This document shows, piece by piece, positions 3,662 to 25,010 of a DNA stretch of 64,000 bases. The translations under genes and the position numbers were made by a program. This DNA comes from Escherichia coli (lineage in GTDB: Bacteria > Pseudomonadota > Gammaproteobacteria > Enterobacterales > Enterobacteriaceae): assembly GCF_036507355.1 (NCBI RefSeq), contig NZ_AP027877.1. One strand, given 5' to 3'. Under the pieces are notes generated by a model. It had not been told where the DNA came from. It did not search any database and was given only the letters and a program-made list of their open reading frames with translations. How positions within the stretch are numbered: position 1 is the first letter of the stretch; each line of letters opens with the position of its first letter.

Positions 3662-4657
3662 ATGAAAAAGAAAAGACCCGTACTTCAGGATGTGGCTGAC
3701 CGTGTAGGCGTGACCAAAATGACGGTCAGCCGTTTTTTACGCAACCCGGAGCAGGTTTCCGTCGCTCTACGCGGCAAGATTGCCGCGGCTCTTGATGAAC
3801 TGGGCTATATTCCCAATCGTGCGCCCGATATCCTCTCTAACGCCACCAGCCGGGCGATTGGCGTCCTGTTACCTTCTCTCACCAACCAGGTTTTCGCGGA
3901 AGTATTACGCGGAATCGAAAGCGTCACCGACGCGCACGGTTATCAGACCATGCTGGCGCACTACGGTTATAAACCGGAAATGGAGCAAGAACGCCTCGAA
4001 TCCATGCTCTCCTGGAATATCGACGGACTTATCCTCACCGAACGTACGCACACGCCGCGCACCTTAAAGATGATTGAAGTGGCGGGGATCCCGGTGGTGG
4101 AGTTGATGGACAGCCAGTCGCCGTGTCTCGATATCGCCGTCGGTTTTGATAACTTTGAAGCGGCACGCCAGATGACCACAGCCATTATTGCTCGCGGGCA
4201 TCGCCACATTGCCTATCTCGGCGCACGTCTCGACGAACGTACTATCATCAAACAGAAGGGATACGAACAGGCGATGCTGGATGCAGGCCTGGTGCCATAT
4301 AGCGTGATGGTTGAGCAATCTTCTTCTTACTCTTCCGGTATTGAACTGATTCGCCAGGCACGGCGGGAATATCCGCAGCTGGATGGCGTGTTCTGTACTA
4401 ATGATGATCTGGCGGTCGGCGCGGCGTTTGAATGTCAGCGTCTGGGGTTGAAAGTTCCTGACGATATGGCGATTGCCGGTTTCCACGGTCATGACATTGG
4501 CCAGGTGATGGAGCCACGGTTGGCGAGCGTGCTGACGCCGCGTGAGCGGATGGGCAGTATTGGCGCTGAACGCCTGCTGGCGCGTATTCGTGGCGAATCT
4601 GTGACACCGAAAATGTTAGATTTAGGTTTCACCTTGTCACCGGGCGGATCTATTTAA
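3662..4657 (+). CDS. gntR: LacI-family gluconate repressor
   Basis: 331-aa ORF; N-terminal HTH (VTKMTVSRFLRNP); synteny with gntKU. Confidence 0.9.
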   Translation: MKKKRPVLQDVADRVGVTKMTVSRFLRNPEQVSVALRGKIAAALDELGYIPNRAPDILSNATSRAIGVLLPSLTNQVFAEVLRGIESVTDAHGYQTMLAHYGYKPEMEQERLESMLSWNIDGLILTERTHTPRTLKMIEVAGIPVVELMDSQSPCLDIAVGFDNFEAARQMTTAIIARGHRHIAYLGARLDERTIIKQKGYEQAMLDAGLVPYSVMVEQSSSYSSGIELIRQARREYPQLDGVFCTNDDLAVGAAFECQRLGLKVPDDMAIAGFHGHDIGQVMEPRLASVLTPRERMGSIGAERLLARIRGESVTPKMLDLGFTLSPGGSI

Positions 4658-4736
4658 GCCCACAAATTTGAAGTAGCTCACACTTATACACTTAAGGCAC
4701 GGATGGATATTGCTTCTGATATTGTCCGGTCGGACA

Positions 4737-4765
4737 ATGTTACCGATAACAGTTACCCGTAACAT
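4737..4765 (+). promoter_or_regulatory. GntR operator pair in the gntKU promoter (atgttaccgataacagttacccgtaacat)
   Basis: Overlapping ATGTTAC...GTAACAT palindromes just upstream of gntK. Confidence 0.7.
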
Positions 4766-4795
4766 TTTTAATTCTTGTATTGTGGGGGCACCACT

Positions 4796-5323
4796 TTGAG
4801 CACGACTAACCATGATCACCACATTTACGTCTTGATGGGCGTATCGGGCAGCGGCAAATCTGCGGTCGCCAGTGAAGTGGCGCATCAACTTCATGCCGCG
4901 TTTCTTGATGGCGATTTCCTCCATCCACGGCGCAATATCGAAAAAATGGCGTCTGGCGAACCACTGAATGACGACGATCGCAAACCGTGGTTGCAGGCGC
5001 TGAACGACGCCGCGTTTGCTATGCAGCGCACTAATAAAGTGTCGCTGATCGTCTGTTCTGCATTGAAAAAACACTATCGCGACTTGCTGCGTGAAGGTAA
5101 TCCGAATCTCTCTTTCATCTACCTGAAAGGCGATTTTGATGTGATTGAAAGCCGCCTGAAAGCGCGCAAAGGCCATTTCTTTAAAACCCAAATGTTGGTA
5201 ACGCAGTTTGAAACGCTGCAGGAGCCGGGTGCGGACGAAACCGATGTACTGGTGGTAGATATCGATCAACCGCTGGAAGGTGTTGTGGCAAGCACCATTG
5301 AGGTTATTAAAAAAGGCAAATAA
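4796..5323 (+). CDS. gntK: Gluconokinase (thermoresistant); TTG start
   Basis: Matches the remembered GntK MSTTNHDHHIYVLMGVSGSGKS...; P-loop; TTG at 4796. Confidence 0.85.
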   Translation: MSTTNHDHHIYVLMGVSGSGKSAVASEVAHQLHAAFLDGDFLHPRRNIEKMASGEPLNDDDRKPWLQALNDAAFAMQRTNKVSLIVCSALKKHYRDLLREGNPNLSFIYLKGDFDVIESRLKARKGHFFKTQMLVTQFETLQEPGADETDVLVVDIDQPLEGVVASTIEVIKKGK

Positions 5324-5326
5324 GTA

Positions 5327-6667
5327 GTGACTACATTAACGCTTGTTTTAACAGCAGTAGGGTCTGTTTTACTGCTGCTGTTTTTAGTCATGAAGGCGCG
5401 TATGCACGCTTTCCTGGCTTTGATGGTGGTGTCCATGGGGGCTGGCCTTTTTTCTGGTATGCCGCTCGATAAAATCGCAGCGACGATGGAAAAAGGGATG
5501 GGAGGCACCCTCGGCTTCCTGGCGGTGGTTGTCGCCCTGGGAGCCATGTTTGGCAAGATCTTACATGAAACCGGCGCAGTCGATCAGATTGCCGTCAAAA
5601 TGCTCAAATCCTTCGGTCACAGCCGCGCGCATTATGCCATCGGCCTTGCGGGGCTGGTCTGTGCGCTACCGCTGTTCTTTGAAGTGGCGATTGTTCTGCT
5701 GATTAGCGTTGCTTTCTCAATGGCGCGCCACACCGGTACGAACCTGGTGAAGCTGGTAATCCCATTATTCGCAGGCGTGGCGGCAGCGGCGGCGTTCCTG
5801 GTGCCAGGGCCAGCGCCAATGCTGCTGGCATCGCAGATGAACGCCGATTTTGGCTGGATGATCCTGATTGGCCTGTGTGCGGCAATTCCGGGAATGATTA
5901 TTGCCGGGCCGCTGTGGGGTAACTTCATCAGCCGTTACGTTGAGCTGCATATTCCTGACGACATCAGCGAGCCGCATCTCGGCGAAGGCAAAATGCCGTC
6001 CTTCGGATTCAGCCTGTCGCTGATCCTGCTGCCGCTGGTGCTGGTGGGGCTGAAAACCATTGCCGCGCGTTTTGTGCCGGAAGGCTCTACCGCTTACGAA
6101 TGGTTCGAGTTTATTGGTCATCCGTTTACCGCGATTCTGGTTGCTTGTCTGGTAGCGATTTATGGCCTGGCAATGCGTCAGGGCATGCCAAAAGACAAAG
6201 TGATGGAGATTTGCGGTCACGCGCTGCAACCGGCGGGGATCATTCTGCTGGTGATTGGTGCGGGCGGCGTGTTCAAACAGGTGCTGGTTGACTCTGGCGT
6301 AGGTCCGGCACTGGGCGAAGCGTTAACCGGCATGGGCCTGCCGATTGCTATCACCTGCTTCGTGCTGGCCGCTGCAGTGCGCATCATTCAGGGGTCTGCC
6401 ACCGTTGCCTGTTTAACGGCGGTGGGGCTGGTGATGCCGGTCATTGAACAACTGAACTATTCCGGTGCGCAAATGGCGGCGCTGTCGATTTGTATCGCCG
6501 GTGGTTCAATTGTTGTCAGCCACGTTAACGATGCCGGTTTCTGGTTGTTCGGTAAATTTACCGGCGCGACCGAAGCCGAAACGCTGAAAACCTGGACCAT
6601 GATGGAAACCATCCTCGGCACTGTCGGTGCCATCGTTGGGATGATTGCGTTCCAGCTGTTGAGTTAA
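5327..6667 (+). CDS. gntU: Low-affinity gluconate:H+ symporter (GntP family)
   Basis: 446-aa polytopic ORF immediately after gntK. Confidence 0.9.
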   Translation: MTTLTLVLTAVGSVLLLLFLVMKARMHAFLALMVVSMGAGLFSGMPLDKIAATMEKGMGGTLGFLAVVVALGAMFGKILHETGAVDQIAVKMLKSFGHSRAHYAIGLAGLVCALPLFFEVAIVLLISVAFSMARHTGTNLVKLVIPLFAGVAAAAAFLVPGPAPMLLASQMNADFGWMILIGLCAAIPGMIIAGPLWGNFISRYVELHIPDDISEPHLGEGKMPSFGFSLSLILLPLVLVGLKTIAARFVPEGSTAYEWFEFIGHPFTAILVACLVAIYGLAMRQGMPKDKVMEICGHALQPAGIILLVIGAGGVFKQVLVDSGVGPALGEALTGMGLPIAITCFVLAAAVRIIQGSATVACLTAVGLVMPVIEQLNYSGAQMAALSICIAGGSIVVSHVNDAGFWLFGKFTGATEAETLKTWTMMETILGTVGAIVGMIAFQLLS

Positions 6668-22988: not shown

Positions 22989-24494
22989 TTACGACGCCAG
23001 CGACAACTTCTGCTGCGTATACTCCACCAGCCACTGACTCACACGAGATTGTTGATCCGCATTCAGCCACATGCCTTGTTTTGTGCGACGCCACAGGGCA
23101 TCGTCGGCGCGGCGGACCCATTCGTGATCCACCAGGTATTTCAGCTCCGCTTCGTAGAACTCATGACCGAAATCTTCCCCGAGATCGCTTACCGTCCCCG
23201 CATTGCCGAGCAGCAACTCGCTGTTGCTGCCGTAAGTGCGCGCGTAGTGACGTGCCAGCGATTCGGTCAGGAACGGGTAGCGGCGGCGCAGGCGGGCGGC
23301 ATAATCGTCGCGGTCGCCTTCAATGGCACCACCCGGCAGCACGCTCTCTTTCGTCCATGCCGGGCCAATGCCCTGATAATACGGCGTTAGTTTTTCCAGC
23401 GCGTGCTCCGCCAGTTTGCGGTAGGTGGTCAGCTTACCGCCGAATACCGACAGCAGCGGTGCTTTGCCGTTTTCATCATGGATATCAAGGGTGTAATCAC
23501 GGGTAATGGCCTGCGGCGAGTCGGACTCATCATCACACAGCGGACGCACACCGGAGTAAGTCCAGACGATATCGTCACGGCTTAACTGCTTTTTAAAGTG
23601 CGCGTTATACACTTTCAGCAGGTAATTGATTTCACTCTCTTCAATCTTCACCGCTTTCGGATCGCCTTTGTATTCCACATCGGTGGTGCCGATGATGGAA
23701 AACTCATCCATCCACGGGATCACGAACACAATGCGTTTATCTTCGTTTTGCAGAATGTAGGCTTGCTTCTGGGTATGCACACGCGGCACCACAATATGGC
23801 TGCCTTTGATCAGGCGAATGCCATAAGGCGAAGGCAGATGCATGCCGTCGTCGAAGAACTGTTTCACCCACGGGCCGGTAGCATTCACCAGGCCGCGCGC
23901 CTGCCAGCGGTATTTTTTGCCGGTGTCGATATCTTCCGCTTCCACAATCCACAAGCCGTTTTCGCGGCGAGCAGAGGTGGCGCGAGTGCGGGTAAGCACT
24001 TCGCCGCCTTTACGCACCACCATCTGAGCGTTGGCGAGTACCAGACGGGCGTCGTCTACCCAACAGTCGGAATATTCGAATCCGCGCTTGATTTCCGGTT
24101 TTAACACTGAGTTTGCGCCAAAACGCAAGCCGGTTGATCCCGGCAGGCTGGTGCGTTTACCCAGATGATCGTACATAAACAGACCAATCCGAATCATCCA
24201 CGCCGGGCGCAGATGCGGACGATGTGGCAGGCGAAAACGCATCGGGAAGGCGATATGCGGGGCCATTTTCAGCAGCACTTCACGTTCAGCCAGCGCCTCG
24301 CTGACCAGGCGGAATTCATAGTGCTCAAGGTAGCGCAGGCCACCGTGAATGAGTTTTGAACTAGCGGAAGAGGTCGCGCAAGCGAGATCCTGCGCCTCCA
24401 GCATCAGCACGGATAAACCGCGTCCAGCGGCGTCTGCCGCGATACCAGCACCATTGATGCCGCCCCCTATCACAATCAGATCTTTGGTTTCCAT
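22989..24494 (-). CDS. glpD: Aerobic glycerol-3-phosphate dehydrogenase
   Basis: Matches GlpD METKDLIVIGGGINGAG...; FAD-binding motif; 501 aa from the internal Met. Confidence 0.95.
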   Translation of the reverse strand: METKDLIVIGGGINGAGIAADAAGRGLSVLMLEAQDLACATSSASSKLIHGGLRYLEHYEFRLVSEALAEREVLLKMAPHIAFPMRFRLPHRPHLRPAWMIRIGLFMYDHLGKRTSLPGSTGLRFGANSVLKPEIKRGFEYSDCWVDDARLVLANAQMVVRKGGEVLTRTRATSARRENGLWIVEAEDIDTGKKYRWQARGLVNATGPWVKQFFDDGMHLPSPYGIRLIKGSHIVVPRVHTQKQAYILQNEDKRIVFVIPWMDEFSIIGTTDVEYKGDPKAVKIEESEINYLLKVYNAHFKKQLSRDDIVWTYSGVRPLCDDESDSPQAITRDYTLDIHDENGKAPLLSVFGGKLTTYRKLAEHALEKLTPYYQGIGPAWTKESVLPGGAIEGDRDDYAARLRRRYPFLTESLARHYARTYGSNSELLLGNAGTVSDLGEDFGHEFYEAELKYLVDHEWVRRADDALWRRTKQGMWLNADQQSRVSQWLVEYTQQKLSLAS

Positions 24495-24527
24495 GCTGCC
24501 CTCATTCACTTTCGTTAAAGCTCATAA

Positions 24528-24545
24528 ATGTTCGTTATCGAACAT
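24528..24545. promoter_or_regulatory. GlpR operator (perfect palindrome atgttcgttatcgaacat) in the divergent glpD / glpEGR control region
   Basis: 18-bp perfect palindrome 34 bp upstream of the glpD start codon. Confidence 0.65.
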
Positions 24546-24605
24546 ATTAGCAAAGAATTGCGCTTTAGGTAACATTGAAAAAACATTTTAGAGTGATATG
24601 TATAA

Positions 24606-25010
<405 letters not shown>

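Follow-up and report, generated by a model that had tools for sequence, protein, structure and literature searches.

The closest described system is the GntI regulatory system of Escherichia coli K-12. Its operators at the gntKU promoter were reportedly described by Izu et al. in 1997 and by Tsunedomi et al. in 2003, and those at the gntT promoter are said to have been described by Porco et al. in 1997 and by Peekhaus and Conway in 1998. The operators of the LacI/GalR family, among them LacI O1, O2 and O3, PurR operators and GalR OE and OI, are likewise even palindromes of 16 bp that are read by a dimer with an N-terminal HTH, and the repressors of these systems are likewise released by an inducer, which is here a sugar acid. 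The E. coli GntR protein has been treated as belonging to the LacI/GalR subfamily (PMC3877293) and its inducers are gluconate and 6-phosphogluconate (PMC2230225, PMC3877293).

Several of the sequences considered below have already been used in experimental work. The sequence ATGTTACCGATAACAG and the consensus ATGTTACCCGTAACAT served as GntR sites with a response to gluconate; ATGTTACCGATAACAG, given there as a GntR site of the gluconate operon promoter, was bound by GntR fusions in a gluconate-dependent manner. Expression of the reporter followed gluconate, and it was lost when the site was deleted or when 2 bp were inserted in the middle of it (PMC10450161). The sequence ATGTTACCCGTATCAT was used as 'a 16bp E. 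coli GntR operator' in a cell-free gluconate sensor, its TATCAT forming the -10 hexamer, and in a purified system GntR repressed through this sequence and gluconate relieved the repression (bioRxiv 10.1101/2023.01.10.523462). The gntT promoter was described as having two GntR sites and a CRP site (PMC11661191). Upstream of gntKU, overlapping sites approximately 13 bp apart are functional for GntR according to a passage of PMC4052901 that cites Tsunedomi 2003. That paper also states that the overlapping arrangement is kept in more than half of the GntR-regulated operons of gamma-proteobacteria, and that two dimers at a 13-bp offset are hard to reconcile with the known structures of LacI-family proteins on DNA.

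The stretch of DNA analysed here (64,000 nucleotides, referred to as the window) is ordinary E. coli chromosome, with yhhW, the gntR-gntK-gntU genes and, approximately 35 kb further, gntT. The gluconate genes of the window are the following.

3662-4657, plus strand: gntR, LacI/GalR-family gluconate repressor of 331 aa (NCBIfam equivalog NF011563, 776.7 bits against a cut-off of 433)
4796-5323, plus strand: gntK, gluconokinase, with a TTG start (equivalog NF008583, 373.6 bits; annotated coordinates in E. coli C)
5327-6667, plus strand: gntU, low-affinity gluconate transporter (equivalog NF007781, 915.8 bits; annotation)
38565-39881, minus strand: gntT, high-affinity gluconate transporter, an open reading frame of 438 aa flanked by malQ and nfuA

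The reading of the open reading frame at 3662-4657 as GntR, given in the initial annotation, agrees with its 776.7-bit match to NF011563, and the gene is annotated as gntR in E. coli C and K-12. The upstream region and the first codons of gntT are those of K-12 gntT, its position agrees with the K-12 annotation, and its homologues carry the names GntT or gluconate transporter. The mechanically called gntK open reading frame begins at a TTG at 4775, and the annotated start, the TTG at 4796, agrees with K-12. Of 5,426 complete E. coli genomes, 5,413 gave an end-to-end alignment of the segment 3600-6700 with gntR-gntK-gntU. The window is 98.3-98.7% identical to K-12 and strain C and 92-95% identical to other Escherichia species. 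At the level of at least 99% identity, the gntRKU segment matched only 2 of the 5,426 complete genomes (the best, an environmental isolate, at 99.2%), and a segment of glpD/glpE (24300-24900) matched 1,401; the gntRKU allele of this strain is therefore rare, while its operators are unchanged. All four operators reported below, the promoter hexamers and the CRP-like sites are identical to those of K-12 MG1655, with the few intergenic differences lying outside them. The GntI operators of K-12 thus have the same sequences, the same gene order and the same regulator as those of the window, with no difference in any of the elements, and since the promoter regions are those of MG1655 the published K-12 results apply to them directly. 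The binding of GntR to the operators of the window and its release by gluconate are reported, in the passages concerned, by papers that quote or cite the same sequences.

Judged by its family and structure matches, the repressor encoded at 3662-4657 belongs to the LacI/GalR family and not to the 'GntR family' of the Bacillus subtilis type. The protein gave full-length matches to many LacI-family NCBIfam models and to PDB chains of LacI, PurR and CcpA, and its best PDB match was 3h5o, 'Transcriptional regulator GntR' (E = 1.4e-62). It has a LacI-type N-terminal HTH and a periplasmic-binding-protein-like effector domain. A winged helix-turn-helix domain of the GntR type (the Haydon & Guest family) was not found among these matches, all of which were of the LacI type. 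Only the name and the gluconate theme are held in common with the GntR family of the B. subtilis GntR/FadR/HutC type, the members of which have a winged-helix domain and different motifs, whereas the protein of the window is of the LacI family. Because of this, 'GntR motif' libraries of the winged-helix family are unsuitable for scanning the sites considered here.

We scanned the window with the literature consensus ATGTTANNNNTAACAT, allowing up to two mismatches, and obtained five matches against 1.84 expected, four of the five lying in the two gluconate promoter regions. A second scan employed a palindromic position weight matrix (PWM) for which only the sites of the K-12 edd and idnD/idnK promoters were used, those of the window being excluded. 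The edd promoter region and the idnD/idnK promoter region each have a single site at the scan threshold (ATTTTACCGGTAACAT and ATGTTACGCATAACGT, respectively), that is, the GntR site of edd and the IdnR (GntH) site of idnD/idnK show the same ATGTTA-N4-TAACAT motif with one mismatch each. Both lie outside the window, idn belonging to the GntII branch and edd to the Entner-Doudoroff branch. In the PWM scan the four operators took ranks 1-4 of 63,985 positions, with 15.7-18.5 bits against 12.8 bits at rank 5, a result not fully independent of prior knowledge of the motif because the edd and idn sites had themselves been found through the literature consensus. For each of these four scores, chance alone would give 0.003-0.06 occurrences in a window of 64 kb, and the mean maximum PWM score in 100 Markov-1 random windows was 13.1 bits. 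Upstream of gntR, as in the rest of the window, the PWM scan gave no other GntR-like site above background. The initial annotation had named such a scan as the check on its two gluconate promoter elements; they scored far above background and not below it. We assign a probability of about 0.96 to the reading that the window carries four classical operators of E. coli GntR, the product of the gene at 3662-4657, and no finding of the analysis spoke against it. The operators (with their mismatches to ATGTTA-N4-TAACAT) and the promoter elements next to them are given below.

4667-4682, plus strand: CRP-like site TTTGAAGTAGCTCACA at gntK, differing from the TGTGA-N6-TCACA core at one position and lying in a block that is conserved among 78 species
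4710-4738, plus strand: putative sigma-70 promoter of gntK, TTGCTT (4710-4715), a 17-nt spacer and GACAAT (4733-4738)
4737-4752, plus strand: gntK operator 1, ATGTTACCGATAACAG, one mismatch, PWM rank 2, 17.4 bits
4750-4765, plus strand: gntK operator 2, CAGTTACCCGTAACAT, two mismatches, PWM rank 4, 15.7 bits, overlapping operator 1 by 3 bp
39901-39916, minus strand: gntT operator 2, ACGTTACCCATAACAA (gene strand), two mismatches, PWM rank 3, 16.1 bits
40042-40057, minus strand: gntT operator 1, ATGTTACCCGTATCAT (gene strand), one mismatch, PWM rank 1, 18.5 bits
40066-40071, minus strand: gntT -35 hexamer TTCTCA, from the promoter scan, conserved
40099-40114, minus strand: CRP-like site at gntT, two mismatches to the CRP core, with ATGAC and TC.CA conserved in 5 genera

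The gene for the cognate repressor of these operators, gntR, lies in the same window, and all four operators are found in the promoter or leader of gluconate genes, overlapping the core promoter or just downstream of it. At the centre of the palindrome, three of the four sites have CC/GG, in contrast to the CG typical of the LacI/GalR family.

The gntK element had been described as atgttaccgataacagttacccgtaacat, and it is present as quoted at 4737-4765 on the plus strand. Its 29 nt are indeed GntR-type sequence, yet they do not form one element: they are two overlapping 16-bp operators. The triplet CAG is common to the two, which sets their offset at 13 bp. Together the operators make up a near-palindrome of 31 nt, with 15-nt arms (4736-4750 and 4752-4766) that are 87% complementary, and 31-59 nt separate them from the gntK start codon downstream. 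The putative promoter in front of them was missed by the sigma-70 consensus scan (score 8 of 12, threshold 9); it was assigned by eye, with the backing of conservation, both hexamers being nearly invariant in 78 distinct Enterobacteriaceae sequences. From the position of this promoter, we infer that transcription of gntK would start at approximately 4745-4746. Operator 1 runs from the last bases of the -10 hexamer across this predicted start, operator 2 would span approximately +5 to +20, and the CRP-like site would be centred at about -70.5 to -71.5.

At gntT the element had been given as the 22 nt of 40036-40057, the reverse complement of which does read ATGTTACCCGTATCATTCACAT. The 16 nt of operator 1 are contained in it; the TCACAT tail does not belong to the operator, and none of the other genera compared has kept it. 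Operator 1 closes with TATCAT, the -10 hexamer of a promoter-like match on the minus strand (40071-40042: TTCTCA, an 18-nt spacer and TATCAT), and the position of this hexamer places the predicted start of transcription at approximately 40035. The CRP-like site would then be centred at about -71.5. A picture of two elements, one at each promoter, was incomplete, since gntT has a second operator, at 39901-39916, which the initial annotation did not contain. The centre of operator 2 falls within the 5' leader, 27.5 nt ahead of the ATG, and operator 1 lies 141 bp further upstream; counted back from the ATG, operator 1 occupies nt 161-176 and operator 2 nt 20-35. Relative to the predicted start, operator 2 lies at about +127; an abstract by Peekhaus and Conway from 1998 reportedly has it 'centred at +120'. 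A main operator on the core promoter with an auxiliary operator downstream is likewise found in lac O1/O2. The short hairpin that could form at the gntT operator is unremarkable (z = -0.76). Further upstream, in the long nfuA-gntT intergenic region (40157-40235), we noted a terminator-like hairpin 3' of nfuA (40175-40157, minus strand), adjoined by a REP-like palindrome, GCCCGATGCGACGC...GCGTCATTTCGGGC, on the minus strand. The gntK and gntT promoters are built on the same plan, each having a CRP-like site near -71 and an operator that lies across its -10 hexamer or its predicted transcription start.

The initial annotation had also proposed that the two elements share a ATGTTACCCGTA core. In the literal sense this does not hold: the 12-mer occurs only at gntT (40046-40057, minus strand), and the gntK element does not contain it, not even with one mismatch. 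The longest exact word common to the gntT and gntK elements is GTTACCCGTA (10 nt), which is shared with the second gntK site, and the gntT word that matches the first gntK site is ATGTTACC (8 nt).

A candidate site between glpD and glpE (24593-24608) was rejected as a GntR site: it took rank 12 in the PWM scan with 10.75 bits, and approximately 4 such matches are expected per window. The sequence AGTGATATGTATAACAT, at 24592-24608 in the divergent glpD-glpE region, is a weak match to the GntR consensus and also matches the CRP core with two mismatches. Because of its background-level GntR score and its CRP-core match, it is probably a CRP-type site of the glp promoters and not a GntR site. Across the whole window the CRP core pattern gave 20 matches against 24.9 expected, which is no enrichment, and for this reason it is conservation and the literature, not the match as such, on which the CRP assignments are based.

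Conservation of the gntK operators was followed in a scan for the GntR protein with one genome per species. It yielded 80 loci from approximately 25 genera of Enterobacteriaceae, with GntR proteins 93-99% identical, and 78 of the 80 had enough downstream sequence to be scanned. Both gntK operators were found at an offset of exactly 13 bp in all 78 species, with gntR directly upstream in each. The mean column identity within 4737-4765 was 0.976, with 22 of the 29 columns invariant; it was 0.61 over the leader that follows (4766-4795) and 0.83 around the promoter spacer. The least conserved intergenic part before gntK is the one between the operators and 4795. The triplet common to the two operators reads CAG in E. 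coli, Citrobacter, Klebsiella and Raoultella, and CTG in Enterobacter, Kluyvera, Lelliottia and others. Through this A/T exchange a mismatch passes from one operator to its partner, a pattern in keeping with simultaneous selection on the two sites.

For gntT we compared eight orthologous loci. Operator 1 was invariant at 16 of 16 positions in 5 genera and operator 2 at 15 of 16, the loci used for the footprint being those of Salmonella, a Kosakonia-like and a Shimwellia-like genome and one further enterobacterial locus. The leader between the two operators is poorly conserved and varies in length, so that they are spaced by 141, 144 or 146 bp. The gntK pair and both gntT sites therefore stand out as phylogenetic footprints. 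A different arrangement was found outside the Enterobacteriaceae, in Pantoea, Erwinia, Yersinia and Brenneria, where gntT has two high-scoring sites at a 14-bp offset (upstream region, ~985-1090 of the loci) instead of a site at the -10 hexamer and another approximately 141-146 bp downstream. The Yersinia-like and Brenneria loci have a gntK-like kinase gene oriented divergently to gntT, and the intergenic region is common to both genes. The motif scan, these footprints and the papers quoting the same sequences all support the earlier proposal that gntKU and gntT are co-regulated by the GntR of 3662-4657.

The similarity of the two promoter regions could in principle be fortuitous, AT-rich palindromes having come to look alike with no common regulator behind them. 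In favour of such a coincidence one may point to the literal 12-mer ATGTTACCCGTA, which the two elements do not share, and to the fifth match to the consensus with two mismatches, at 24593, which is at background level. It would have to account, however, for four sites that fill ranks 1-4 of 63,985, are expected 0.003-0.06 times each, all precede gluconate genes and are conserved across genera within variable DNA; we consider a chance origin to be practically negligible. A role of the gntK sequence in RNA, as a hairpin or as a terminator for read-through from gntR, deserves slightly more weight and is still very improbable. The 31-nt near-palindrome (4736-4766) does suggest it, with its 15-nt arms of 87% complementarity followed by the T run TTTTTAATTCTT and its location 80 nt after the gntR stop codon. 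Its predicted RNA fold, however, has only -5.4 kcal/mol (z = +0.73), and 152 of 200 shuffled sequences folded at least as well; the terminator scan detected nothing at this place. The conserved letters moreover follow the GTTAC/GTAAC half-sites, as they do at edd, idn and gntT, where the hairpin is absent, and a gntK mRNA that began near 4745, as predicted, would include no more than half of the palindrome.

Another reading, which we regard as just as improbable as the RNA one, is that the sites are mainly targets not of GntR but of its paralogue IdnR (GntH), which has a near-identical motif. The consensus of the operators of the window also describes the idnD/idnK site ATGTTACGCATAACGT, and the IdnR model also scores strongly on the GntR of the window (402.8 bits). 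Against this, idnR is absent from the window, each of the 78 species has gntR immediately before the operators, and in both the cited and the synthetic-biology work it is GntR itself that acts on these sequences. Cross-regulation by IdnR (GntH) is plausible as an addition to control by GntR and not as its replacement.

With GntR as the regulator, the sites suggest the following mode of action. A GntR dimer would occupy each 16-bp palindrome of the consensus ATGTTA-N4-TAACAT when gluconate is lacking. At gntK the pair would extend from the end of the -10 hexamer across the transcription start to approximately nt 20 of the transcript. Since the operators cover the -10 hexamer and the start, bound GntR would block the initiation of gntKU transcription by RNA polymerase. 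At gntT, operator 1 contains the -10 hexamer and its occupation would exclude the polymerase, while operator 2 may add to repression either by looping to operator 1 or by blocking elongation. The varying spacing of the two gntT operators (141, 144 and 146 bp) gives no support to a strict helical phase in such looping. Gluconate, and at higher concentration 6-phosphogluconate, would free GntR from the DNA. The predicted CRP-type site approximately 71 bp upstream of each promoter start would bring both promoters under catabolite control, with cAMP-CRP acting as an activator.

Two dimers at the 13-bp offset of the gntK pair are difficult to accommodate in the known LacI-family structures (PMC4052901). 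It is possible, although we think it rather doubtful, that this double operator is read in a way unlike the solved LacI-family complexes. Two dimers might sit on different faces of the helix with local distortion of the DNA, or occupation of the two operators might be mutually exclusive. The puzzle of overlapping GntR sites was already raised by Ravcheev et al. 2014, so that a non-canonical reading of the gntK pair, if true, would resolve a known question and would not be a new discovery. Mutually exclusive occupancy, if true, would widen the range of the response.

The four operators are the described GntI regulatory system of E. coli and as such are already known. They are among the best-characterised sugar-acid operators of E. 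coli and have already become parts in gluconate biosensors, and their value as a discovery is accordingly small. The value of the analysis lies in a correct annotation of the locus: four operators, each with an extent of 16 bp, a repressor of the LacI family and a parallel layout of the two promoters.
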